Positions 5,698 to 36,629 of a DNA stretch of 36,637 nucleotides are shown piece by piece. This DNA comes from an uncultured Bifidobacteriaceae bacterium (GTDB taxonomy: Bacteria > Verrucomicrobiota > Verrucomicrobiia > Limisphaerales > JADLHS01), in contig CAYIOH010000001.1 of NCBI GenBank assembly GCA_964364975.1, forward strand, positions 1 to 36,637, written 5' to 3'. Every line of letters begins with the position of its first letter. Positions within the stretch are counted from its first letter, which is position 1. Position numbers and translations under genes: made by a program. Below the pieces are notes generated by a model. It did no database searches. It had not been told where the DNA came from and was given only the letters and a program-made list of their open reading frames with translations.

Positions 5698-7476
5698 CTA
5701 CGCGTGAACCGCGCGCCTCACCCTGTTCTCTCTTCCAAGGGGCGCCCTCTGCACGAGCAGGTTGCCCATCACGAGCACATCCATGTCGGTGCGCTGGAAA
5801 CAGGCCACCGCCTGCTGGGGCGTGTCCACCACAGGCTCGTTTTCATTAAAGCTCGTGTTGAGCACCACGGGCACCCCGCTCTTCCGCGCAAACGTGCGGA
5901 TCAAATCGTAATAGAGTTCATTCTGCGACCGCTTGACGGTGTGCAACCGCCCGGTGGCATCTTGATGACAAACCGCGGCCAGCGCCTCGCGCTTGTCCGG
6001 CTTGATCTTCACCACGTGCATCATGAAGGGGCTCTCCATGTCCTGCCCGAAATAATTCCCAGTTTCGTCCGCCAGGATGCTGGGCGCAAACGGCCGGAAC
6101 GACTCGCGCCGTTTGATTTTCTGGTTGATCAAATCCTTCATGCCCGGCCAGCCTGGATGCGCGAGGATGGAGCGATTGCCCAACGCGCGCGGGCCCCATT
6201 CGCTGCGGCCCTGATACCAGCCCGTGACGTGGCCCGAATTCAAATGCGCCGCCACGCGCTCCAGCAAAGCCGCCCGTTCAAGCCGATCGAAACTCAATCC
6301 CGCGTTGCACAGCGCTGTTTCCATTTCTTTCTCGGAATATTCCGCTCCCCAATACGCGTGCTCCATGCTCCCTGCTCTTTGCCTTCCCAGTACCACATTC
6401 CAAACGTAGAGCGCCGCGCCGACCGCCGTGCCGTCATCCGACGCCGCGCATTGGATGTAACTGCGTCGAAAAGGCGTCTCGCGCAGAATCCGCGCGTTGC
6501 AAACACCGTTCAACGCGCAGCCGCCGGCGGTCACGAGATTTTCCGCCGGAGCCTGTGCGTGCAACCACTTCAGACAGCCCAACACGACGTCCTCAAAGTG
6601 GGCTTGGCAGGATGCGGCGATGTCCTTTTCGCGCTGGGTGATTTCTGTCCCGAGCGCACGAGGCAGACCAAGGCGGGCTTTCAACGCTGGCGAATACAGC
6701 GGCGGCAGCAAGATTTCGCCTCGTTCGTCCACGCATTCTTCCAGATTTTTGCCCAATGGCACAAAAAAACGGGAGTTCAACCGGTACTGTCCGCTGCCAT
6801 TACCGGCCAACAACTCGCGCATCAACGCCAACTGCGACTGCTCACCGTAAGCCGCCAACCCCATCACCTTGTATTCCTCGCCGAACCTGGCGAATCCGAT
6901 GAACTGGCAAAGCGCCGTGTAAAAGAAGCCGAGCGAATCCGGCATGAAAACGCGGTCAAGGATATGAATTTGGTTTCCCTCGCAACGCACAAACATGCCG
7001 GATGTAAAGTCGCCAGCGGCATCGTAGGAAAAGCCAGCCGCTCGATCGAAATCACTGGCGAAATAGGAACCGGCAATGTGCGCCAGGTGATGCTCCACGC
7101 GAACAACCTTGAAGCGGCAATCCTTTTCCGGCACGCCGCAGGCATCCGCCACAAGTTGTCGGATGCTCTGCATTTTGGCGCGCCGCTGAAAGTGCGTGAA
7201 CACACCGCGCGCGGATGTGAATGGCGTCCGCAAGACATTTGATGCCTTCGCGGCCAGGTTGGCGTTGCTGTCGTTGCCGACGGCGACGTAATCCACGTCC
7301 CGCACTGTCGCGCTGGCCATCTTGAGCACCGCGCGCAGCGCCTGCGCCGGAAAACCGGCGCGATGCTTGATCCGCGACCCCAGCCGTTCCTCGGCCACGG
7401 CCGCCACCAGCCGCCCATCCACCAGCGCGCAAGCGGCGGAGTCCGGATGGAAGGCGTTAAGACCGAGGATGAGCAT
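5698..7476 (-). CDS. Carbamoyltransferase (NodU/CmcH family)
   Basis: 592 aa. MLILGLNAFHPDSAACALVDGRLVAAVAEERL N-terminus, HHLAHIAGSY, and C-terminal VLNTSFNENEPVV are typical of NodU/CmcH O-carbamoyltransferases. Confidence 0.9.
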   Translation of the reverse strand: MLILGLNAFHPDSAACALVDGRLVAAVAEERLGSRIKHRAGFPAQALRAVLKMASATVRDVDYVAVGNDSNANLAAKASNVLRTPFTSARGVFTHFQRRAKMQSIRQLVADACGVPEKDCRFKVVRVEHHLAHIAGSYFASDFDRAAGFSYDAAGDFTSGMFVRCEGNQIHILDRVFMPDSLGFFYTALCQFIGFARFGEEYKVMGLAAYGEQSQLALMRELLAGNGSGQYRLNSRFFVPLGKNLEECVDERGEILLPPLYSPALKARLGLPRALGTEITQREKDIAASCQAHFEDVVLGCLKWLHAQAPAENLVTAGGCALNGVCNARILRETPFRRSYIQCAASDDGTAVGAALYVWNVVLGRQRAGSMEHAYWGAEYSEKEMETALCNAGLSFDRLERAALLERVAAHLNSGHVTGWYQGRSEWGPRALGNRSILAHPGWPGMKDLINQKIKRRESFRPFAPSILADETGNYFGQDMESPFMMHVVKIKPDKREALAAVCHQDATGRLHTVKRSQNELYYDLIRTFARKSGVPVVLNTSFNENEPVVDTPQQAVACFQRTDMDVLVMGNLLVQRAPLGRENRVRRAVHA

Positions 7477-7864: not shown

Positions 7865-8827
7865 TCACTCATGGTCAGGTGTTGTTCTTGGTTTGCGCCG
7901 GGATTCCCGTCTTGGCCCCTCGCTCCGGACTTCAGGCTCGCCGCTCCCCGCTCCTTGCTCGCGGCTAGCGACTCTCAGCTTTTGTTCCAAAAGCCGCAGT
8001 GACAAAATGATTTCCGCCAGCGTACGCTGAAAGACGTAGTACCAACCCCTCCAGCCGTCAAAGATCAGGCCTTTGCCGAGCAGCGTGTAAATGAAGACCA
8101 GGAACGGGGCGAACACGATCTTCCGCCGCACCCGATCGGCCAAGGACAGCCCTGTGAGCCCGGACGACGGACAACGGACCACGGACCACGGACCACAGAT
8201 TTCTGCTTTCAGATTTCTGCTTTCCGCTTTGCCCCATGCTCCCTGCTCCCCGCTCCCGGTTCTCATCAAATGCTCCGCTTCCAGCCTCGCATACCGATCC
8301 TGCTCCCTGAGCCAGCGATCCAGCGGCTTGCGATCGTCGTGATAGAGCACCGAGCGCAGCGGCAGGACCTTCCCCTCGATCTGCACCCGATGCCCATGCC
8401 CCTCGTCGCGATAGCGTGCGCGCTCCTTCTGGTAAAGCACCACCCGTGGCGGATAGAGCGACGCCCGCATTGGACGGCCCCAAACGCAGTAACGAAAACG
8501 GACGGAATAGCCGGCCACTCCTTGCTCCGGCCTCCATGCTCCAAGCTCGCGGACCAACTCCTCCGACAGCAGGTAGTCTGCGTCCAAGGAAAGCACCCAC
8601 GGCGTCCGAATGTGCTGCAAGCCGAAGTTGCACTGCTGCGCAAAGGAATCGAACTCCCGCTGTACGATCCACGCCTGCGGCAGCTTCCTCACCAAGTCAC
8701 ACGTCTCGTCCGTGCTGAAGCTATCGACCACCACGATCTCCTTCGCCCACCTCAGCCGCGACAACGTGCGCTCGATGTTCGGCGCTTCGTTGTACGTCAG
8801 AATGAGCGGCGTGATTTGAAGAAGCAT
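7865..8827 (-). CDS. Glycosyltransferase family 2, carrying an internal heptamer-array insertion and a heptamer-derived C-terminal tail
   Basis: 320 aa. TPLILTYNEAPNIERTLSRL...VVVDSFSTDET...LSLDADY GT2 motifs, and a C-terminal membrane-proximal region GWRGWYYVFQRTL. The segment GSGEQGAWGKAESRNLKAEICGPWSVVRCPSSG coincides with the DNA array at 8162-8259. Confidence 0.85.
   Translation of the reverse strand: MLLQITPLILTYNEAPNIERTLSRLRWAKEIVVVDSFSTDETCDLVRKLPQAWIVQREFDSFAQQCNFGLQHIRTPWVLSLDADYLLSEELVRELGAWRPEQGVAGYSVRFRYCVWGRPMRASLYPPRVVLYQKERARYRDEGHGHRVQIEGKVLPLRSVLYHDDRKPLDRWLREQDRYARLEAEHLMRTGSGEQGAWGKAESRNLKAEICGPWSVVRCPSSGLTGLSLADRVRRKIVFAPFLVFIYTLLGKGLIFDGWRGWYYVFQRTLAEIILSLRLLEQKLRVASREQGAGSGEPEVRSEGPRRESRRKPRTTPDHE
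7922..7984. repeat. Heptamer-periodic array (GCTCnnn phase) forming the C-terminal tail region of the GT2 gene
   Basis: GCTCCGG ACTTCAG GCTCGCC GCTCCCC GCTCCTT GCTCGCG GCTAGCG ACTCTCA GCTTTTG, with GCT recurring every 7 nt. Encodes ...RVASREQGAGSGEPEVRSE.... Confidence 0.5.
8162..8259. repeat. Mosaic heptamer array (14 units) inside the GT2 CDS
   Basis: GGACGAC GGACAAC GGACCAC GGACCAC GGACCAC AGATTTC TGCTTTC AGATTTC TGCTTTC CGCTTTG CCCCATG CTCCCTG CTCCCCG CTCCCGG. Confidence 0.85.
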
Positions 8828-8842
8828 GGACGGAAGGGTGGA

Positions 8843-8904
8843 GGTCAGAGATCAGAGATCAGAGGTCAGCCTTCGGTTTTCAGTCGTCAGTCGTCAGCCG
8901 TCGG
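8843..8904. repeat. Two heptamer arrays flanking a short core, intergenic and overlapping the GT4 stop codon
   Basis: GGTCAGA GATCAGA GATCAGA GGTCAG - ccttcggttt - TCAGTCG TCAGTCG TCAGCCG TCGG. The stop codon at 8894-8896 (TGA on the minus strand) is part of the second array. Confidence 0.85.
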
Positions 8905-10135
8905 AGACCACGCAATCCGGTTTTGGGCCTTGCCCGAGCGCCCAGCAGTAAACGGCGTGCATCTGCTCCGCGACGCCCAGCCAACTGTATCTGGTTTCCA
9001 CCAGTTGGCGGCCGCGGGCACCCATCTCGCGTCTCTCCTCATCAGTCTGGCCTATGGCTTGGCCTAAGGCCAAGGCCAGGTGTTCCGCACCGACGTCGAT
9101 ACACCAGCCGCAACGGTGCGTTTCCAATTCTTCCCACGGTGTGGCACGTGTTGTGATCACGGGCACACCACAGGCGAGCGCTTCGCCGACCACCAGGCCG
9201 AAATTTTCGGAGTAGCTTGGCAGAACGAACAGGTCCGCCCCGCGATAAAGCTCCCACCTGGCCTCACCTGCCACTTGCCCAGCGAATTCAAAGTCGTTCT
9301 CAATGTGTAGTTGACGGGCGAGAGCTTCGAGCTCCCGCTGGTGACAGCCTTCATCCCGGCCCGCGACGACGACCCGCCAACCTTGAGGTCGCACACTTGC
9401 CCAGGCGCACAGCAGATCAGGAAGCCCTTTTATTGGGTGTATCCTCCCCAGGTAGAGAAGGACCTTTGATCTGGAAGCGAAGGGCGAAGGACGAAGGGCG
9501 AAGGGCACTTTGCTCTCGGCTCTTGGCTTTTGGCTTAAATCCGGCACTTCGATCCCATTCGGCACGACCGCGATCGCCTGCCGCAGGCCCACCGCGCGAA
9601 ACTCCCGAGCCTCTTCTGGCGAGGTCGCATGCAACACTTGGGCGCACTGCAAGTCACGACGCTGATACAGCACCCAGGCGATCCGTTTCTTCAGCCCTTT
9701 GAATCGGAGTGCCCAGCTGGAGAGCATCCCACGTGGGCTGACGATACGAGGGATTCTGAATTCCCGGCACACTGTGGCCACCGCGTGGTTCGTCAACAAC
9801 CAAAGCCCGGTATCATGCACGAGTTGCACGTCCCCGTTACGAGAACGATCACGGATAGCAGATTTGAATCGCGGTGTCCACTGGGCACACCGCTCAAGCG
9901 CCGAACTGCAAGAGACGAGGGTTGTCTGTGCCGCCGCACGCGAGGGAATCAGAGGCTCGCCAAACCCCGGACCGTAATCGAGCGAAACCACCTCGACCTT
10001 AACGCCATGGTGCCCCAAAGCCTCACACAGTGCTGGCACACTGCGCGAAGGACCACCGCTTTCGGGATGCAATCCCGCAATCGCAAACAGGACTTTGAAT
10101 GAGGTCACGCTAAGCGGCAGCGCTATGCTCGGCAC
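8894..10135 (-). CDS. Glycosyltransferase family 4
   Basis: 413 aa. GT4 N-domain (GGPSRSV...), C-domain LGRIHPIKG, LPSYSENFGLVVGEALACGVPVITT (EX7E-type). A 21-codon low-complexity insert coincides with the array at 9474-9536. The stop codon lies inside the array at 8880-8904. Confidence 0.8.
   Translation of the reverse strand: MPSIALPLSVTSFKVLFAIAGLHPESGGPSRSVPALCEALGHHGVKVEVVSLDYGPGFGEPLIPSRAAAQTTLVSCSSALERCAQWTPRFKSAIRDRSRNGDVQLVHDTGLWLLTNHAVATVCREFRIPRIVSPRGMLSSWALRFKGLKKRIAWVLYQRRDLQCAQVLHATSPEEAREFRAVGLRQAIAVVPNGIEVPDLSQKPRAESKVPFALRPSPFASRSKVLLYLGRIHPIKGLPDLLCAWASVRPQGWRVVVAGRDEGCHQRELEALARQLHIENDFEFAGQVAGEARWELYRGADLFVLPSYSENFGLVVGEALACGVPVITTRATPWEELETHRCGWCIDVGAEHLALALGQAIGQTDEERREMGARGRQLVETRYSWLGVAEQMHAVYCWALGQGPKPDCVVSDG
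9474..9536. repeat. Mosaic heptamer array (9 units = 63 bp = 21 codons) inside the GT4 CDS
   Basis: GAAGCGA AGGGCGA AGGACGA AGGGCGA AGGGCAC TTTGCTC TCGGCTC TTGGCTT TTGGCTT. Translated on the minus strand as SQKPRAESKVPFALRPSPFAS. Confidence 0.85.
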
Positions 10136-10175: not shown

Positions 10176-11618
10176 TTATTTTCCGCACTGTGATTCCGTA
10201 CCAACTGCCGGCCACCCAGCGACTACCACATCGGCCGGTTTCGGCAGGCGAAATCTCGTTTTGCGCCGGAACCTTCCTATCGCAACGGCGCGACCGTTTG
10301 CACCCGAAAACACGCTCGCTCCTCGAGCGACGCAATAAGCTGCCGCAACGGCTGCACCAGCAGATGACATCAACTCGGCCAACCTCCCTGTTTGCACAAT
10401 AGACAGCGCAAGAACCGACCAACATAAGAACTTAGTAAGATTTTGCTTCTGCACGCTCGCGGCCATCTGATAGTCGCAATGCCGAGTCAATGATCCCAAC
10501 AGGAAATTGCCCACGAACAACCCGATGATTCCGAAGTTGATGTAAAACTCGAATGAGGGGCCTAGCCCAACGCTGGTAGTTTCTCGAAAATTCAGTCCTG
10601 TGTATTTGGCAACGATTTCTGAGTTGCCTACGTACACCGGCTTTCCTGGCCAGAGGATGCGCGGAATGAGAGCCGTGAAGCCTTCGACTATCGACTGGCC
10701 CCACAAGTATTCCACGTGCCCCGCCTGCAGGTTGTTGACCACTCTGCCGAACATCCATCCCTGCGCCAGCCTCGAAGTGATGACCTTCCGTTGCTGTGGA
10801 TCCCAAGGGTTGAACCACTCAAAGTTCTCGAAGGTATTCCGCATCTGTGCGGCGCGTACGGATAAGGCAGCTCCTTTTTCCCAGAGCAGTTCGCGCATGA
10901 CGGACCGGTCTCGCATGTACGTCTGGAAGATTGACATGCCGAGGTAACACAGGATACAGGCCGGAACGAGCATCCTTAATCTCCGTTGCGTTCTCCTTGT
11001 GATGACTGCCGCGAGAAGAGAAAAGATCATCAGACCGTAGCCAGAGAAACCAAGCAGAAGAACGGAGGCCGCGAAAACCACGGTGGCAATCGCAAACGCG
11101 GCCGTCAGCCCAGTTGATCCTGACACTGAGCCGCCGAAATTCGGGCGGAACAGGTAGCAAGCGAAAAGGGATGCAAGGACGATGGCCTTTCCACCGGAAG
11201 CGAGGGCTGTGGCTGTAGGCAAGCCCCGGACAAGAGGGAAAACCCCAAGCCAGACAACCAAGCCGGCCAGTCCAGTGGAATAAAGTTGCTTCCTTGAAAC
11301 TGTGTATGACCCCGGGCGCGTAGTCGCGCCCGTCGCCACCTTCACCTGCCGACGATGAATCAACAGCAAACCAAGGACGAAAGCCAAAAAGCTGATAGTG
11401 CCGTGCCTCTGAGAAACGAGGGCGAGCTGGGTTTCTTCCGAGGACCGGTACGAAAGTGAGACCAGCGCTGGAATCCAGTCATTCAATAAGGCAAAGACCA
11501 AGTACATGAGTGGATAAGCAGTGGTTGATATCCTTTGATCCAGGAACCGTCGTAGCATCAAAACGGCTGCGGACAGACGGATTGCCAGGAGGGCGGTGAT
11601 TTCAAATTCAACTTCCAC
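10176..11618 (-). CDS. Polytopic membrane protein, O-antigen polymerase/ligase-like (Wzy/WaaL superfamily) candidate
   Basis: 480-aa ORF with about 10 hydrophobic segments and one larger loop. Its position inside a glycan cluster and its locally lower GC are typical of wzy. No sequence motif was firmly recognised. Confidence 0.45.
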   Translation of the reverse strand: MEVEFEITALLAIRLSAAVLMLRRFLDQRISTTAYPLMYLVFALLNDWIPALVSLSYRSSEETQLALVSQRHGTISFLAFVLGLLLIHRRQVKVATGATTRPGSYTVSRKQLYSTGLAGLVVWLGVFPLVRGLPTATALASGGKAIVLASLFACYLFRPNFGGSVSGSTGLTAAFAIATVVFAASVLLLGFSGYGLMIFSLLAAVITRRTQRRLRMLVPACILCYLGMSIFQTYMRDRSVMRELLWEKGAALSVRAAQMRNTFENFEWFNPWDPQQRKVITSRLAQGWMFGRVVNNLQAGHVEYLWGQSIVEGFTALIPRILWPGKPVYVGNSEIVAKYTGLNFRETTSVGLGPSFEFYINFGIIGLFVGNFLLGSLTRHCDYQMAASVQKQNLTKFLCWSVLALSIVQTGRLAELMSSAGAAVAAAYCVARGASVFSGANGRAVAIGRFRRKTRFRLPKPADVVVAGWPAVGTESQCGK

Positions 11619-13127: not shown

Positions 13128-14537
13128 TCATCGCTCGTCCTTCGTAGTGACCAACTTTCGTACGGCCTCCACCGTTCCTTTCACCGCTTCCTCTAAACTG
13201 TAAGCCCGCATTTTTTCCTCCAGCGCCGGTGTGAAATCATACCCGGCCAATTTCATTTCCCCGAGCGCCATCAACCGGCCAGCCAGCGCTGTGACATCGG
13301 CGACAGGGAAAGCGAATCCGGTTCTTCCTCCCTCAATCAAGTCCGGCGCGCAACCCACAGCCACCGAAACAATCGCCGGCAACCCACACGCCATCGCTTC
13401 GTTGACCACCAGTCCCCACGTCTCGCTCTCTGAAGGCAGGACCAGCACCTCGGCGGCGGCATAATAACGCGGCAGTTCTGACTGGTTCTTGAAGCCAGTG
13501 AAGTGAACGCGCAGATTTTCCCGCGCCGCCAGTTCGCGCAATTCGTTCTCCAGTTCGCCAGCCCCGACGAATACGGCGAGCACATTCATCCCGGTAGGGC
13601 GCGTCACTCCGTGCGCGCCGATAGGTTGAATGGGCGTTCCGGACGGCGCGCACGGAGTGACGCGCCCTACCTTGGGATCCGCACGAAGGGTGAGTTCGCC
13701 TCGCAACTTCGCCATCGCCTGCAGTAAATCTTGCGGCCGCTTCTTCGGTATGAATTTTCCCACGAACAAAACCACTAATGTCCGCCGGCAGTCCTGTGGT
13801 CCTGTAGTCCCGTTGTCCTCATCCGTTACACCCCACTGTCTTCTAATTTCAGCTTTCTGCTTTCGCGCTATTTCTGCTTTCCCCCCGAACCATTCATTAT
13901 TCACAAAATGCGGCGCGAAAAATATTTTCCCCTCCGGCACGCCGTAATGCGCGAGATATTCCGCGTTGCGTCGGCCAACCGGTAGATACCCGGCGAATTG
14001 CCGGAGCAGTAGTCGATAGGCAATGGCCTTGACCGAGCGCTTAAGCCAGGAGCGGGGAGTACCGAGTTGGGAATCGCCCCGCACAAGAATCGGCACGCCC
14101 GCGCGCCGACATGCCCGCACCGCCTGCCAATACGATTTCAAATGCCAACCGCAAACGATGAAGGCGTCGAAGCGCTTCGCGCTTTGACCACTGACCACTG
14201 ACCACTGACCACTGACCTCCATCCCATGCTTTGTTGTCCCGTTGTCCGTTGTCCGCTGTCCCGTGGTCCCAGAAATGATGTCTGCAATTTCTGGCGTATC
14301 GCAGCCGAAGAAATTATTCACGCCAGGCCGTGCTGATACGTTGATCAGGAAACGGTGGTTGTAACCCGACAGCAAGTCCACGTCCCAATCGAACGCCACA
14401 CCAAACCCGGCCTTCCCCTGCTCCGCCGCCGATTGCCGGTGTGCAAAAAAACCCTCCAAATCCACTTCCTTTGCCAACCCGCGAAACCAAGGCGCCAGGT
14501 ATTGGATCGGATGACTTGCCAAAACTCCCAGTCGCAT
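13128..14537 (-). CDS. Glycosyltransferase family 4 interrupted in frame by three repeat-derived segments
   Basis: 469 aa. GT4/GT1-fold motifs FVGKFIPKKRPQDLL, VLPSESETWGLVVNEAMACGLPAIVS. Three non-family-like segments coincide with DNA repeats at 14186-14269, 13791-13881 and 13593-13671. Confidence 0.8.
   Translation of the reverse strand: MRLGVLASHPIQYLAPWFRGLAKEVDLEGFFAHRQSAAEQGKAGFGVAFDWDVDLLSGYNHRFLINVSARPGVNNFFGCDTPEIADIISGTTGQRTTDNGTTKHGMEVSGQWSVVSGQSAKRFDAFIVCGWHLKSYWQAVRACRRAGVPILVRGDSQLGTPRSWLKRSVKAIAYRLLLRQFAGYLPVGRRNAEYLAHYGVPEGKIFFAPHFVNNEWFGGKAEIARKQKAEIRRQWGVTDEDNGTTGPQDCRRTLVVLFVGKFIPKKRPQDLLQAMAKLRGELTLRADPKVGRVTPCAPSGTPIQPIGAHGVTRPTGMNVLAVFVGAGELENELRELAARENLRVHFTGFKNQSELPRYYAAAEVLVLPSESETWGLVVNEAMACGLPAIVSVAVGCAPDLIEGGRTGFAFPVADVTALAGRLMALGEMKLAGYDFTPALEEKMRAYSLEEAVKGTVEAVRKLVTTKDER
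13593..13671. repeat. Perfect 28-bp-stem palindromic element (REP/RPE-like) inside the GT4 CDS
   Basis: GGTAGGGCGCGTCACTCCGTGCGCGCCG (13593-13620) and its exact reverse complement CGGCGCGCACGGAGTGACGCGCCCTACC (13644-13671), with a 23-nt loop. Translated in frame as ...VGRVTPCAPSGTPIQPIGAHGVTRPT.... Confidence 0.9.
13791..13881. repeat. Mosaic heptamer array inside the GT4 CDS
   Basis: GTCCTGT GGTCCTG TAGTCCC GTTGTCC TCATCCG ... TTTCAGC TTTCTGC TTTCGCG CTATTTC TGCTTTC. Shares the 11-mer TTTCTGCTTTC (two copies here) and GTGGTCC/GTTGTCC units with 8162-8259 and 14186-14269. Confidence 0.75.
14186..14269. repeat. Mosaic heptamer array (12 units = 84 bp = 28 codons) with a perfect (GACCACT)4 tract, inside the GT4 CDS
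   Basis: GACCACT x4 (14186-14213) GACCTCC ATCCCAT GCTTTGT TGTCCCG TTGTCCG TTGTCCG CTGTCCC GTGGTCC. Encodes ...TTGQRTTDNGTTKHGMEVSGQWSVVSGQ.... Confidence 0.9.
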
Positions 14538-29420: not shown

Positions 29421-30778
29421 GAGGAAATTCGCCTCGAACTCCATGGAAGCAGCGGCGCGACCAGGCCGAGCCGAGCGTCGTTGACATCGGCGATAATACC
29501 GGCCACTGGTTCGATCGAAAAACTCGCGGCTTGATCCACTGAGAGCACCCCACACACCATCGGGATATCGATGCCAACCCAAAGGTAGTAGCGTCCACGG
29601 TTGAGCAGGTGAGCGGGAAACTCCACCTCGGAAACGTACGCGCCCGCTGGACGCGCTTGGAGTTTGCCTCCGAGCGAATCGCAGTCCGTCGTGGTTAACA
29701 CCACCGTGGTGTCCTGAGCGTGCAAACGGAAACCCAAACGCAATTGCGGCATGGCGGCAGTCAATTCGTAGGTCAGTCGCACACGGAAAGGTTCGTGGTT
29801 CGGCAAGAATGAGGAAGGATTGCCTTCTGAATTGAGAACTTCGACGGAGCGAAGAATCAACGGATGCTCGGCAGCTTTGAGGTTGAGCTTGCCGTTGTCG
29901 GAGTGCCGAGCGGCGCTGTCATTGAGGTAACGGGCGATCACTCTCGCGGGATCGCTCTGATCAGTCAACCGTCCAGCGTTCAGCAGAATGGCGCGAGAGC
30001 AAAGATTGCCAACTGTTCCCATGTTGTGGCTGACGAACAGAACGGTGCGTCCTTGCTGGTGGGCCACTTCGTCCATCTTACCCAAACATTTCTTCTGAAA
30101 CGACGTGTCCCCTACTGCCAGCACTTCGTCCACCACCAGAATTTCCGGTTCCAAATGCGCCGCCACCGCAAACGCCAGCCGCACATACATGCCGCTGCTG
30201 TAGTGTTTCACCGGCGTGTCCAGAAACCTTTCCACTTCCGCAAACGCCACGATTTCGTCGAACTTCTTTTTGATCTCCGCCCGGCTCATTCCCAGGATGG
30301 CGCCGTTCAGGAAGATGTTTTCCCGCCCCGTCAATTCGGGATGGAACCCCGTTCCCACTTCCAACAAACTCGCCACGCGCCCTTTGATGCGTATCTTACC
30401 CGTAGTCGGCTCGGTGATGCGGCTGAGAATTTTGAGCAGCGTGCTTTTCCCCGCGCCGTTGCGCCCGATGATGCCGACCACTTCGCCTTGTTTGACCTCG
30501 AAGGAAACGTCGCGCAAGGCCCAAAAATCTTCGGTTCGTGGAAGACTGGAGTTAGAAGACGGGAGATGGGAGCCGGGAGATCGAACCGAACTGCTATCTG
30601 CTATCTTCGACCTGCCAAAGCCCCAGAGGCGACGGGCGAGGGAGCGGGGAGCACAGAGCGCGGAGCCGGCCTTCTCGGCCAGCACGTCGCGCAGGGCGGT
30701 GTAGCGCTGCCGCTGGGCCTGGTGTTGCAGACGGTATTTCTTGCCGAGGTTCTCGACCGATATGATCGCTTCGCTCAT
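29417..30778 (-). CDS. wzt: O-antigen/polysaccharide ABC exporter ATP-binding protein (Wzt/TagH type) with C-terminal glycan-binding (Wzt_C-like) domain and a 42-codon repeat-derived insert
   Basis: The ATG at 30778 ([17 protein letters not shown]) is the family-typical start; the ORF is open to 30913. Walker [10 protein letters not shown], signature YSSGM, Walker B ILVVDE. A ~170-aa C-terminal beta-rich extension follows. The insert SALCAP...NSSLP coincides with the array at 30541-30666. Confidence 0.9.
30541..30666. repeat. Mosaic heptamer array (18 units = 126 bp = 42 codons) inside the wzt CDS
   Basis: GAAGACT GGAGTTA GAAGACG GGAGATG GGAGCCG GGAGATC GAACCGA ACTGCTA TCTGCTA TCTTCGA CCTGCCA AAGCCCC AGAGGCG ACGGGCG AGGGAGC GGGGAGC ACAGAGC GCGGAGC. 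Confidence 0.8.
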
Positions 30779-31570: not shown

Positions 31571-31739
31571 GGTGATGATGACGGAGTCACCCATCGGGAT
31601 AGAAGACACGGCTCTTGCTGGAAGATGGCGGATAGCAGATGGAAGATTGTTCCACTACTTCCCGTTTCGCTTTTCCAACTGTAATCTCTGGTCTTTGATC
31701 TATCATCTTCATACTTCCAACTCCCATCTTCGCGCGGCT
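31571..31739. repeat. Heptamer-periodic spacer between the wzm stop and the epimerase C-terminal pseudogene fragment
   Basis: GAAGATG GCGGATA GCAGATG GAAGATT GTTCCAC TACTTCC CGTTTCG CTTTTCC AACTGTA ATCTCTG GTCTTTG ATCTATC ATCTTCA TACTTCC AACTCCC ATCTTCG. GAAGAT-type units on the left and their complements (ATCTTC) on the right give imperfect dyad symmetry. Confidence 0.75.
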
Positions 31740-33477: not shown

Positions 33478-34743
33478 TCAGTTTTGTTGGATTGATGAGG
33501 CGGCTGCCGCTTTCGGCGGCGAAAGCGCTTCCAGTCTGGGAACAAGCCGTTCCACGATCTCATGCACGCGAGTTTGGAAGCTTTCGAACGAAAAATCATT
33601 AAGGCTGGCTGAAACAAATCCGCGAGGCCACTTCAGCGCCGCCAGGATTCCTTCCCGGATCTCTGCGGGGTTCCTCGGGTCAACGATGAATCCCAGCTTC
33701 CCACCGCCCACCACCTCGCAGCTCGCGTCGGCTTTGCTCGCAACGACCGGAATTCCACAAGCCATCGCTTCCAAGTAAACGATACCGAATCCTTCACCCC
33801 AGCCCGGCATCACGAAGGCATCCGCCATGCGGTAATGATCCACTTTTTCGTCCTCTGGGATTCGGCCGGCGAAAACGACCTGCGCGGGGTTGAGCGTGGA
33901 GCGTGGAGCGTGGAGGGTCGGGGAGTGGGGCTTCGATACCTCACCCAACCCTCTCCCCGATCGATGCGGAGAGGGCGATGAGTTAGCGCGCGCGCAGTCG
34001 GTCACGGAAAGGCCGAGTGATTGCGCCTTGTTCATCAAGCGCTCCCGGTCCGTTCCATCGCCGACGACGAGGTAGCAAAGACTTGGGATTTCTTTCGACA
34101 AATCAGGCAGAACTTCCATGACTCTGTCCACTCCCTTGTACCGTTCCTGCGCCGAAAGGCGTGCCACGGTCAGCAGGACTGTCCGGTCGCGCAGACAATA
34201 ACGGTCGAGCAGTTGCGAGTTTTTTGGGCCGGGGCGGAAAGCAGCCAACTCGATGCAGTTGGGCAAAATGAAAGTCCGAACGCCGTCCAATCGCGCCCAG
34301 CCCAGAAATCGCTGCTTCGTAAACTCGCTTACCGCAATCAGGGCGTTGATTCTCCTGACCAATCGATTGACCAGCCAACTGCGAGTCGGTTGCCACGCGT
34401 CAATGCCATGGATTACCAACGCGACCGGCGCACGGCAAAACAATCGCGCCGCCAATGCGACCGATAGCAGATTGATGTGGCCGCAAATCAGAAGGTCAGG
34501 GGTCGGAAGTCGGAGAACGGTGGTCAAAACCGTTTTGATATAGCGCAGTTTGCTGCCGACGCCGGAGGTGACGTAGTTAAGCTTCGTCGGCAGTGCGCCG
34601 GGCGGCTCGGGCATCAAGCGTGGAACAGCCACAACTTCTTCAACGTCCTGGGCCGCACAGAGCGCGGTCAGCAGATCGCGATTGAACTTCGCGATGCCTC
34701 CGAAACCGCCGAAGGCGTCCGTCACGAGAACCAGAATGCGCAT
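33478..34743 (-). CDS. Glycosyltransferase family 4 with ~40-codon repeat-derived insert
   Basis: 421 aa. MRILVLVTDAFGGFGGIAKFNRDL N-terminus; VMPGWGEGFGIVYLEAMACGIPVVAS C-domain. The segment VTDCARANSSPSPHRSGRGLGEVSKPHSPTLHAPRSTLNPA coincides with 33892-33982. The start ATG shares one base with the asnB stop (TGATG). Confidence 0.8.
   Translation of the reverse strand: MRILVLVTDAFGGFGGIAKFNRDLLTALCAAQDVEEVVAVPRLMPEPPGALPTKLNYVTSGVGSKLRYIKTVLTTVLRLPTPDLLICGHINLLSVALAARLFCRAPVALVIHGIDAWQPTRSWLVNRLVRRINALIAVSEFTKQRFLGWARLDGVRTFILPNCIELAAFRPGPKNSQLLDRYCLRDRTVLLTVARLSAQERYKGVDRVMEVLPDLSKEIPSLCYLVVGDGTDRERLMNKAQSLGLSVTDCARANSSPSPHRSGRGLGEVSKPHSPTLHAPRSTLNPAQVVFAGRIPEDEKVDHYRMADAFVMPGWGEGFGIVYLEAMACGIPVVASKADASCEVVGGGKLGFIVDPRNPAEIREGILAALKWPRGFVSASLNDFSFESFQTRVHEIVERLVPRLEALSPPKAAAASSIQQN
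33892..33982. repeat. Heptamer array (GAGCGTG)3... plus small hairpin, inside the GT4 CDS
   Basis: GAGCGTG x3 GAGGGTC GGGGAGT GGGGCTT CGATACC TCACCCA ACCCTCT CCCCGAT CGATGCG GAGAGGG CGATGAG. CCCTCTCC (33949-33956) pairs with GGAGAGGG (33968-33975). Confidence 0.8.
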
Positions 34744-36629
34744 CAGTTTCGAGTGAACCGATCGTAAACCTGCCTGGCCCAGCCACGAAGGCCGCGAGAA
34801 TTCGCGCGGGGTTGAGCGTTGAGGGAAAAGGTTTGAGAGTCGCGCAAAAGCCAGTCGCGGACCGGGACGGAAAAGCCGGTCTTGGGCCGGGCAAGCAGGG
34901 CAGCAGGGAGCGGAGAGCGGGGAGTAAGGGCCATGTCGCGCTTGGTCGGAGGCGTCTCGCTGGCGAGCAACGGAGCGACCGCGTGCAGGACCGCCACGTC
35001 CACCAGCGGCACGCGGATTTCCAGCGAGTGAGCCATGCCTGCCCAGTCCGAATCACGCAGGAGTTGGTTGCGCATGTACCAGCACATCTCGAGAGCACTG
35101 ACGCGCACGCGGCCAGAGTTCAGAGGACAGAAGTCAGAATTTGGAACTGATCGCCGATCTCTGATCGCCGATCTCTGAGAAAGCAGACCAGCGGTCAAAT
35201 TCAACAAGGCAAGGGTGTTGAGCTCTTCCCAGCCTTCGCGCACGAGGTCCGGCTCGAGCAATTCAGGCAGTTCCCAAGGCATGAACAGACCACGGCGGAG
35301 CAGGTAGGCATCGGCGTAGCTGGAGCCGTATTCGAGCAGCCCGGCGTATTTGGGCGAGGTGAAGCGATTGAGCACGGGGGTGGAAATCACACGAAGCGCG
35401 CGGCCAAGCGAACGGGCAAAAGGCAAAGGGCGAAGGGCCTTCACGAGGCGCGGAATTTCGCGAAAGCTGGGATAGCCGCCGAACAATTCGTCGCCGCCCA
35501 AACCGGACAGGGCGACCTTCAGCGAAGCGCGCGCGGCGGCGAAGCTGACGAAGTAGGTGTTGACGCCATCCGTGCTCGGCTGATCCATTGCGTCGAAAAG
35601 GCGATTAACGTGAGTTTGAAAATCTCGACGCGCGACCCAAATGGTCTGGTGTTGTGCGCCGTATTGGCGGGCGACGGCTTCGGCGAACGGGACTTCATCG
35701 TTGGCCGTCCCACGAAATTCCTCGAATCCCAGTGTGACCGTGCGCAAACGGCCGCCTTGCTCGGCGGCCAGCGCGGCAAGTGTCGTCGAGTCCAAGCCGG
35801 ATGACAGAAACACACCGACGGGGACATCGGCGATCAGGTGGTGCCGGATTGTGTCCTGGAGAGCGAAGCGCAACAAGTCGTGGAGTTGAGGGCTGGGGGC
35901 TGAGGGTTGAGAGTTCGAGCGTTCGGCATGCGAAAGGATTTCCGTGATTGAGCAGAATTTGCGCTCCCGTCGCCCGCCGCCCTGGCCAACCCAAAGCGTC
36001 GCACCCGGCGGCAAGGACCGGATGGTCTTGAACAGCGTGTAGGGTTCAGGCACGTGTCCCCACAGGAAGAAACCGACGTGCCCGGCCGGATCGGGTGTCT
36101 TCTCAATGTATCCGCCCGCGAGCAACGCCTTCACTTGCGAGGCCGCTCGAAATGTCCTGCCGTCATCCGCAAAATATAGCGGTTTGATGCCGAACGGGTC
36201 GCGCGCCAAAAGCAAGCCGCGTTGCTCGCCATCCCAGAGCGCAAAGGCATACATGCCGCGCAGATCGTTCATCATCGCCTCGCCTTTCTGCGCGTAGAGC
36301 CGGAGCAACACTTCCGTGTCGCTGTTGGATTTGAACACATGGCCTTGTTGTTCGAGCGCCGCGCGCAGTTCGCGGTAGTTGTAAATCTCGCCGTTGAAAA
36401 CGATCGCCAGTTGAAACTCCGGCAGCAGCATGGGCTGCGCACCGGCCGGGGACAGATCAATGATTGAAAGCCGGCGATGGCCAAGACCAACGCGGTGCAA
36501 AGGATCGAACCACTCTCCTGCCCCATCAGGACCACGCAGCGTCATGTGGTCGCGGATGGCGCGCAGTTCCCCGTCATTCACGCCGGGCGCGTCAGAGTTG
36601 TAGGCGAAGATGGCTGCTATGCCACACAT
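34743..36629 (-). CDS. asnB: Asparagine synthase (glutamine-hydrolysing) family amidotransferase
   Basis: 628 aa. MCGIA N-terminal nucleophile, HRRLSIIDLS, GEIYNYRELR, and the PP-loop VGVFLSSGLDST. Three clear repeat-derived segments and one tentative segment lie in the C-terminal half. Confidence 0.9.
   Translation of the reverse strand: MCGIAAIFAYNSDAPGVNDGELRAIRDHMTLRGPDGAGEWFDPLHRVGLGHRRLSIIDLSPAGAQPMLLPEFQLAIVFNGEIYNYRELRAALEQQGHVFKSNSDTEVLLRLYAQKGEAMMNDLRGMYAFALWDGEQRGLLLARDPFGIKPLYFADDGRTFRAASQVKALLAGGYIEKTPDPAGHVGFFLWGHVPEPYTLFKTIRSLPPGATLWVGQGGGRRERKFCSITEILSHAERSNSQPSAPSPQLHDLLRFALQDTIRHHLIADVPVGVFLSSGLDSTTLAALAAEQGGRLRTVTLGFEEFRGTANDEVPFAEAVARQYGAQHQTIWVARRDFQTHVNRLFDAMDQPSTDGVNTYFVSFAAARASLKVALSGLGGDELFGGYPSFREIPRLVKALRPLPFARSLGRALRVISTPVLNRFTSPKYAGLLEYGSSYADAYLLRRGLFMPWELPELLEPDLVREGWEELNTLALLNLTAGLLSQRSAIRDRRSVPNSDFCPLNSGRVRVSALEMCWYMRNQLLRDSDWAGMAHSLEIRVPLVDVAVLHAVAPLLASETPPTKRDMALTPRSPLPAALLARPKTGFSVPVRDWLLRDSQTFSLNAQPRANSRGLRGWARQVYDRFTRN
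34801..34842. repeat. Short heptamer array (about 6 units) near the 3' end of asnB
   Basis: TTCGCGC GGGGTTG AGCGTTG AGGGAAA AGGTTTG AGAGTCG. Encodes SQTFSLNAQPRANS. Same GnGTTGA unit family as 35883-35924. Confidence 0.55.
35114..35197. repeat. Mosaic heptamer array (about 12 units) inside asnB
   Basis: CAGAGTT CAGAGGA CAGAAGT CAGAATT TGGAACT GATCGCC GATCTCT GATCGCC GATCTCT GAGAAAG CAGACCA GCGGTCA. GATCTCTGATC (35156-35166) is the exact reverse complement of GATCAGAGATC at 8850-8860. Confidence 0.8.
35883..35924. repeat. Heptamer array (6 units = 42 bp = 14 codons) inside asnB
   Basis: GAGTTGA GGGCTGG GGGCTGA GGGTTGA GAGTTCG AGCGTTC. Occupies codons 236-249 exactly (ERSNSQPSAPSPQL), just upstream of the PP-loop. 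Confidence 0.75.

Follow-up and report, generated by a model that had tools for sequence, protein, structure and literature searches.

How does the gene of a family-2 glycosyltransferase (GT2) come to carry, within its coding sequence and in frame, a run of 7-nucleotide (nt) units that belong to three unlike families? The question is raised by positions 8162–8259 of a 36,637-nt stretch of verrucomicrobial DNA (contig CAYIOH010000001.1; hereafter the window), where 14 consecutive heptamers (14 × 7 = 98 nt) lie inside the open reading frame (ORF) 7865–8827 on the minus strand. Our answer, to which we give a probability of about three in four, is that the array is a compound heptanucleotide simple sequence repeat (SSR) in a tolerant loop, reshaped by slippage and array turnover under a filter for reading frame and stop codons.

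Read on the plus strand, the array opens with module A (8162–8196; GGACNAC ×5, as GGACGAC GGACAAC GGACCAC GGACCAC GGACCAC), which the gene reads as GTGGTCC... and which encodes the peptide CGPWSVVRCPSS. There follow module B (8197–8224; AGATTTC TGCTTTC AGATTTC TGCTTTC, two copies of a perfect 14-nt period), two hybrid or degenerate units between modules B and C (CGCTTTG CCCCATG, 8225–8238) and module C (8239–8259; CTCCCNG ×3, as CTCCCTG CTCCCCG CTCCCGG). The longest perfect runs are three GGACCAC units and two perfect 14-mers. Tandem Repeats Finder (TRF) reported arrays at 8161–8196 (period 7, 5.1 copies), 8196–8224 (period 14, 2.1 perfect copies) and 8237–8257 (period 7, 3 copies). Identity at a lag of 7 nt across the 98 nt was 0.77, compared with 0.20–0.33 at adjacent lags; none of 10,000 shuffles scored as high, and 8162–8259 ranked first in lag-7 identity among the 98-nt stretches of the window (window mean 0.26, standard deviation 0.06). 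Letters, TRF and lag-7 identity therefore agree with the 14-unit, three-family array that a preliminary description of this DNA had recognized.

The same description held that the families are joined in unbroken 7-nt phase, a claim that depends on the register chosen and was not upheld. In its register, adjacent units agree at 6, 6, 7, 7, 3, 5, 5, 5, 5, 4, 5, 6 and 6 of 7 positions, so that the A/B junction is a single sharp break (3/7) and the change from B to C is graded through the two hybrid units. In the TRF register, module C reads TGCTCCC TGCTCCC CGCTCCC at 8237–8257, the hybrid units become an irregular spacer, and B and C are parted by an irregular 5/12-nt stretch that is no multiple of 7; read as TGCTCCC, module C matches arrays at 6359 and 7936 and resembles the TGCTTTC of module B. 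Because no independent register exists between unlike units, unlike arrays that abut are in phase by construction, and the chance prior of a total length of 98 = 14 × 7 is about 1 in 7.

The host ORF encodes 320 residues, with a PF00535 domain (Glycos_transf_2) at residues 9–144 (55.1 bits against a gathering cutoff of 23.3). The array is in frame and encodes residues about 190–222, after which the frame runs on into conserved C-terminal helices; the peptide GKAESRNLKAEICGPWSVVRCPSS corresponds to residues 199–222. Homologues of the protein run into the thousands, those with names coming from metagenome-assembled genomes of Verrucomicrobia, and its best matches are likewise verrucomicrobial; one homologue, P0002 (537 residues), consists of two tandem copies of this GT2 fused in one ORF. 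Full-length orthologues have 250–300 residues. In an alignment of 20 homologues, distant orthologues (250–270 residues) show a short loop between "...EAEHLL" and "DR(L/V)RR", and the nearest relatives bear low-complexity inserts at the same loop as the window.

To measure this loop at the DNA level, we anchored it with two ungapped tblastn probes, which covered 170 of 171 loci (strict regular-expression anchors: 19/171). Across these 170 orthologous loci, from Verrucomicrobia, cyanobacteria, Acidobacteria and others, the distance between the codons for L187 and F239 was 57 nt in 154 and 54 nt in 2; longer loops were confined to the window (153 nt) and to ten loci of close relatives (70–165 nt). 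Set against the usual 57 nt, the 153-nt loop means that the window has gained 96 nt (32 codons). The gain starts after GAGCATTTGATGAGAA and stops before GGGCTCACAGGGCTGTCCTTGGCCGATCGG, at most 2 nt from the edges of the array, and alignment with orthologues thus places the insert where the preliminary description had drawn it. Loci from the genome-contig scan (best 58% identity) and from the metagenome scan (best 55% among the matches listed) served as insert-free controls.

An AlphaFold2 model (mean predicted local distance difference test score, pLDDT, 78) gave pLDDT below 50 for residues 194–227 only, a segment flanked by a helix at 169–191 and by helices at 229–294, the first at 229–236. 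On this model, the insert is predicted to form a disordered loop that links the catalytic domain to a helical C-terminal region; ORF, Pfam domain, loop measurement and model all bear out the earlier placement of the translated array in a loop after the catalytic domain. A sequence search of the PDB with GT2 matched only the generic GT2 N-domain (SunS), and no solved structure spans the loop.

Could the loop have received the array whole, as a single composite mobile element of the MITE (miniature inverted-repeat transposable element) or REP (repetitive extragenic palindromic) type? A palindromic element is indeed tolerated in frame in the neighbouring family-4 glycosyltransferase (GT4) gene, but there are no inverted repeats in 8100–8320 and the composite was found nowhere else, its modules occurring separately and in other orientations; we regard such an insertion as scarcely credible. 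A structured element, RNA included, was considered as well: folded as single-stranded DNA of the plus strand and compared with shuffles, the GT2 array gave z = −1.05 and the GT4 array pair z = 0.12, and a hairpin or structured element was rejected on the lack of inverted repeats in that same interval and on folding no better than shuffles.

The arrays carry the mark of the reading frame. As 7 is no multiple of 3, arrays inside genes must be free of stop codons in all three sense frames. Fourteen of the 15 in-gene arrays are open in all three; inversion would bring stops into 3 of the 14. Stops on the sense strand mark the two arrays at 8841 and 8880, which occupy intergenic DNA or the end of a gene. 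Among the in-gene arrays module B stands apart, as its sense strand GAAAGCAGAAATCT makes a TGA at the unit junction: the module stops after two copies, at ATC TGT GGT, and a third copy would read ATC TGA in frame. Such a pattern is what a process indifferent to coding leaves behind once selection has kept the arrays that preserve the frame and are open.

Whether such arrays are still moving can be judged from the best relatives, metagenome contigs L081–L090, whose GT2 proteins are 65–77% identical to that of the window. Their GT2 loops hold arrays of other units: GGGAGAT/GGAAGAT/CGAAGAT in L081 and L084–L087, the octamer GGACCACR in L082 and L088, GCCAAGA in L083 and a degenerate mixture in L089 and L090. 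The GT4 gene 13128–14537 (minus strand) offers a parallel case at 13847–13881, where the window has GAAAGCA-type units and where L082 (3199–3224) and L081 have an AGGTCAG-type heptamer array of identical total length; the B-like stretch is no extra insert relative to these two loci, and the family has been replaced at constant length. Orthologous sites therefore keep their position, and in the GT4 case also their length, while the unit family changes. Such replacement is explained as readily by turnover inside an array as by conversion from one array to another. We also observed that a more distant orthologue, P0014 (63% identity), has the loop peptide GKAESGKQRTEDRQKGEVSNQWSVVSGLT, in the order KAES..., WSVV..., GLT, which is the order of the window, though closer relatives bear other families.

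A change of length was caught among the closest of these loci to one another. The loop of L084 measures 70 nt and that of L086 and L087 84 nt, with near-identical flanks and few substitutions across the aligned coding region, and that region has a single indel, by which L084 cleanly lacks two units (14 nt), GGAAG[ATCGAAGCTGGAAA]ATCGAAG; this deletion shifts the GT2 frame between the anchors. L085, whose array amounts to 8 × 7 = 56 nt, has likewise lost the frame. L084 and L085 both retain, in the shifted frame, an uninterrupted conserved C-terminal region (...KGLIFDGWPGWFYVFQRTYAE...). From the clean two-unit deletion and from out-of-frame alleles with intact downstream frames, we conclude that whole-unit slippage operates in these relatives and makes recent "off" alleles. 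Frameshifted loci numbered 2 of 11 among those bearing arrays and 0 of 156 among those free of them (Fisher P = 0.004).

These alleles raise the prospect of an adaptive contingency locus, in which gain and loss of units would switch GT2, and hence the surface polysaccharide, on and off and the array would be kept for that purpose. Several observations suit it: the unit is not divisible by 3 and the array lies inside an ORF, the cluster makes surface polysaccharide, relatives have natural out-of-frame alleles with intact downstream frames, one of them through a clean two-unit deletion, and frameshifts are confined to array-bearing loci; the CAAACAA repeats of Neisseria pglE provide a precedent (PMC1976384). 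Against it, the copies here are few and imperfect (3 perfect units, compared with 15 in pglE) and form no long perfect tract, the array lies late in the gene (residues 190–222 of 320), away from the 5′ end, and arrays occur also in an asparagine-synthase-like gene, in a carbamoyltransferase gene and in intergenic DNA, which fits a genome-wide mutational process and not selection at a particular locus. We consider maintenance for switching doubtful.

The compound SSR that we favour is not peculiar to one gene, as its units recur. Family A (GGACCAC) appears elsewhere in the window as TGACCAC at 14185 (direct), as GTTGTCC... at 14233–14270 (inverted) and as an 8-nt variant at 13791 (inverted); family B recurs only at 13847–13881, on the same strand; and family C recurs at 6359 and 7936 (direct) and at 30640 and 34899 (inverted). 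Searches of the window with 14-mers (at most two mismatches) returned 4, 10 and 7 matches where 0.23–0.35 were expected, beyond every shuffle, each count including the query array's own copies; the two non-self matches of module B both lie at one locus, in GT4. Single-linkage clustering of units at one mismatch chained 53 heptamer arrays into one cluster and was uninformative. Unit sharing was instead scored by exact canonical matches against shuffled-unit nulls, which gave 8 matches with the close relatives against 0.44 expected, a value that none of 2,000 shuffles reached. By exact canonical matches there was no significant sharing of unit families with other heptamer-rich Verrucomicrobia or with cyanobacterial loci. 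Single-heptamer sharing within the window (at most one mismatch) stood at 15 pairs against 7.8 in a composition-matched null (P = 0.015). Module sharing is thus clear with close relatives and modest inside the window, where the preliminary description had seen it. Compared on the letters of the units, these matches support the view that the units behave as reusable families drawn from a repertoire shared by the clade.

Two further observations on the same units concern viral DNA. Runs of (GGACCAC)3 or longer occur in 27 diverse IMG/VR viral contigs, among them L172, L173, L179, L180, L181, L185, L186, L190 and L194, and are uninformative on the origin of the family; several of these matches are no more than about 600 nt from where a contig stops, which is expected if dispersed arrays break assemblies. 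For the 26-nt stretch across both copies of module B, no match was found in viral contigs, a result that also counts against a mobile composite.

Recurrence of this kind might reflect exchange of modules, with ectopic recombination or gene conversion carrying unit families between loci and building compound arrays from pre-existing modules. The preliminary description had argued for shuffling of this sort, and against one copy-paste element, from the reappearance of its modules in GT4 in another order and orientation. That reappearance holds for A and B; module C is absent from GT4, and the relative orientation and spacing of A and B differ between the two genes, from which it follows that the GT2 array is no copy of a composite element. 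The claim that no single composite was copied accordingly stands, and recombinational shuffling was not demonstrated. Exchange would explain why the same families occur, much more often than the null predicts, at loci that are not orthologous, both within the window and among relatives, why different families occupy orthologous sites (in the GT4 case at identical total length) and why adjacent inverted arrays of one family recur. It is weakened by the finding that no recombinant junction joins any two loci and that none have a common flank of more than about 13 nt, by the modest excess of unit sharing over the composition-matched null within the window and by the stepwise similarity of neighbouring units from B to C (5-4-5 of 7), which divergence within an array fits as well. 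We hold exchange to be possible and no more than tentatively so.

A preference for one period is common to the cluster. Under one scoring scheme the window has 10 arrays of period 7 and 0–1 at each other period from 4 to 12; a looser threshold gave 16. L081 and L083 are also enriched in period 7, L082 and L083 in period 8, and 8-nt forms of these cores are frequent among the relatives. Most other Verrucomicrobia loci show no period-7 enrichment; L004, L147 and L144 do, as do several cyanobacteria, one Moorena locus having 41 arrays. One might imagine that a special enzyme adds the repeats, perhaps a polymerase that copies a template or measures like a ruler, or a reverse transcriptase acting at breaks, and so lays down 7- and 8-nt arrays of defined sequence in this lineage: the strong specificity for these two periods, the conserved, lineage-specific repertoire of units and the scatter of heptamer-rich genomes among related lineages would suit it. 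We judge it very unlikely, since no candidate enzyme was identified in the window or related loci, 7- and 8-nt units of one core are mixed in single arrays, contrary to a strict ruler, and the one change observed is a deletion of two internal units, which is typical of slippage.

We return to the compound SSR. As we picture it, three abutting arrays would have been drawn from a lineage-specific repertoire of 7- and 8-nt unit families. Arrays would arise and turn over by slipped-strand mispairing, following the polymerase-footprint idea of Mrázek et al. for heptamers, and concerted evolution within arrays, or conversion between them, would swap one unit family for another. Selection would retain only arrays that are of net length divisible by 3, free of stops and located in loops, linkers or termini. 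The encoded peptide would be a tolerated spacer without a function of its own, and stochastic on/off frameshifting of the transferase would be a side effect, possibly exploited.

Several points weigh against this account. Pure local slippage leaves unexplained both the same units at unrelated loci, in genomes whose GT2 proteins are only about 65–77% identical, and the strong preference for period 7 (and 8). No unit in the GT2 array has more than three perfect copies, so the present slippage rate may be low. Length variation was seen in relatives, no conspecific of the window having been found in protein and genome-contig searches or among the metagenome matches listed. The frameshift alleles lie on short metagenome contigs, where assembly error is possible, though a clean two-unit deletion is atypical of such errors.

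Bolder, and in our estimate unlikely, is the proposal that in a clade of soil Verrucomicrobiota an active, family-specific process seeds and renews 7- and 8-nt arrays at many sites, protein loops among them, and that these arrays serve as reversible frameshift switches for surface-polysaccharide genes; the seeding might be due to ectopic conversion of one array by another or to an enzyme specialized in adding repeats. If true, it would amount to a contingency-locus system in a free-living, non-pathogenic bacterium and would open a comparative route to the origin of heptamer repeats.

The GT2 array belongs to a larger set, about 18 short-period arrays in the 36.6-kb cluster, most of them inside coding sequences, in linkers or loops. 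The cluster codes for glycosyltransferases, sugar-nucleotide enzymes, components of a Wzm/Wzt-type ABC (ATP-binding cassette) transporter, methyl-, acetyl-, pyruvyl- and carbamoyl-transferases and an asparagine-synthase-like enzyme; it is a verrucomicrobial gene cluster of the ABC-transporter type for surface polysaccharide. Five pairs of arrays lie at most 40 nt apart, against 0.34 expected, and none of 20,000 random placements gave five. In the closest relatives, too, such arrays are numerous, clustered and of preferred period. Compound arrays are thus the rule in this cluster and no special trait of the GT2 locus. The arrays within ORFs sit where extra length is expected to be tolerated, in linkers, loops and termini.

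Two further arrays belong to family C. One (TGCTCCA TGCTCCC TGCTC, 6359–6377) lies in the interdomain linker of the carbamoyltransferase gene 5698–7476 (minus strand), and the other (GCTCGCC GCTCCCC GCTCC, 7936–7954) in the C-terminal tail of GT2 itself, a tail of about 35 residues that reaches past the end of insert-free orthologues. This 3′ end of GT2 (7865–7960) is a second hot spot for arrays, as are the C-termini of P0003, P0004, P0006 and P0008; the relatives' GT2 C-termini end in GPRDHRTTGPQDC..., coded by GGACCACR octamers at 10745–10788 in L081, 10790–10817 in L082 and 6914–6949 in L083. Upstream of the GT2 start, in a 66-nt spacer, GAGGTCA/GAGATCA ×4 and TCAGTCG ×3 occupy 8841–8902. 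The TCAGTCG units (8880–8902) overlap the stop codon (8894–8896) of the upstream GT4 gene 8894–10135 (minus strand), and their sense strand, CGACTGA, supplies a TGA in every frame. That GT4 has a further array in its linker, at 9477–9536.

The other GT4 gene, 13128–14537, is richer still. An inverted 8-nt variant of family A (GTCCTGTG GTCCTGTA GTCCCGTT GTCC) at 13791–13818 makes up, with flanking codons, a 12-residue insert (the TDEDNGTTGPQDCRR region) that is absent from all five aligned orthologues. The family-B stretch at 13847–13881, on the same strand as module B, reads TTTCAGC TTTCTGC TTTC gcgcta TTTCTGC TTTC. An N-domain loop insert at 14185–14270 comprises TGACCAC ×4.7, 15 nt and GTTGTCC(C)...GTGGTCC, the last part (14233–14270) being family A inverted, with 7- and 8-nt units mixed. 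Adjacent arrays of one family in opposite orientation occur at four places, namely 14185–14270 of the window, 11235–11334 of L082, L184 and L191, and may hint at strand-switching events. Farther along the window, arrays lie at 30557–30666, in the N-terminal loop of Wzt, with further period-7/14 arrays at 33892–33915, 35147–35178, 35415–35438 and 35890–35915; apart from the Wzt gene, a GT4 gene and the asparagine-synthase-like gene contain the arrays of this region. Lag-7 identity is also raised (0.52) at 31619–31716.

The palindromic element of the GT4 gene 13128–14537 is of another kind. At 13593–13671 there is a perfect 28-nt inverted repeat, with the arm GGTAGGGCGCGTCACTCCGTGCGCGCCG, a 23-nt loop and then the reverse complement, which lies in frame and encodes ..GRVTPCAPSGTPIQPIGAHGVTRPT.... 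One arm also matches the orthologous GT4 of L002 (3643–3669), whose protein shows a related peptide at the corresponding place in the alignment; the inverted repeat is missing from L081 and L082. The arm has GTAG near its 5′ end, a feature shared, to judge by its title, with the GTAG-tagged REPs of PMC3733652.

For annotation, these results mean that what looks like low-complexity "inserts" in these proteins is repeat DNA translated in three frames and no protein motif. They also provide a clean natural case of two-unit slippage that frameshifts a glycosyltransferase, and such arrays could diversify surface polysaccharides in soil bacteria. The comparison of heptamer-rich with heptamer-poor relatives, and of shared families with non-shared arrays, offers a handle on the cause of the 7-nt preference. 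Dispersed heptanucleotide repeats have been on record since 1990 for cyanobacteria and since 2007 for further bacteria, and we know of no accepted origin or function for them.

The oldest of the comparable systems is the set of cyanobacterial short tandemly repeated repetitive (STRR) heptanucleotide sequences, reportedly described by Mazel et al. in 1990. Their STRR1, STRR2 and STRR3 units are CCCCAGT, TTGGTCA and CAACAGT, and STRR and TAACTGA repeats are described as mainly intergenic. Like them, the arrays studied here consist of tandem 7-nt units from a small repertoire of families present at many loci and shared among related genomes, with unlike heptamers adjoining, and period-7 enrichment was seen in the cyanobacterial loci compared as well; unlike them, they belong to a Verrucomicrobiota host, have other unit sequences, lie mostly inside coding sequences and have 8-nt variants in relatives. 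Taking the STRR units to be those just given, no doublet of any of the three, or of TAACTGA, was found in the window within one mismatch, and the sole two-mismatch matches are to the STRR2 doublet, apparently on the reverse strand of the TGACCAC array. The sense strand of that array (14185–14217), GTGGTCA, is one base from STRR2, which is probably coincidence. In eukaryotic compound microsatellites, unlike motifs abut far beyond chance and neighbours are partly related by point changes; the present arrays share both traits and differ in being bacterial, of 7-nt units and inside genes.

Heptanucleotide repeats are likewise reported from Calothrix (PMC4692102), and Microcystis has mixed arrays of differing heptamers, "a range of repeating heptamers... 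often mixed" (PMC4679880). As summarized in two later papers (PMC4679880, PMC4692102), the survey of Mrázek et al. (2007) counted more heptanucleotides than any other class of long SSR where 5–11-nt repeats abound, proposed slippage tied to how long a piece of DNA the polymerase holds and gave the units in coding regions as multiples of three; long SSRs also differ in length and sequence between close relatives (same sources). Our literature searches for heptamer repeats in Verrucomicrobia returned nothing relevant, and the phylum is unmentioned in these two papers. As far as that account extends, the present arrays resemble the long SSRs of the survey in the dominance of heptanucleotides, in large, GC-rich genomes of non-pathogens, in variability between relatives and in the slippage proposed, and they depart from it in that many genes contain, in frame, units whose length is no multiple of three.

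Closest in setting are the phase-variable genes of pathogens. The Neisseria glycosyltransferase gene pglE has CAAACAA repeats in its ORF, 15 copies corresponding to the off state (PMC1976384), and Haemophilus influenzae has heptanucleotide SSRs in ORFs that undergo phase variation (PMC2651432). As in these systems, a change of one unit shifts the frame and natural out-of-frame alleles exist, here in relatives of the window, and as in pglE the repeat lies in the ORF of a glycosyltransferase. In pglE, however, 15 perfect copies stand early in the ORF of a host-restricted pathogen, whereas here 2–5 imperfect copies of each of three families stand late in the gene of a soil bacterium. Set beside all of these, what is unusual in the present cluster is the density of arrays with non-triplet units lying in frame in coding loops, together with a natural frameshift allele that differs by two units.

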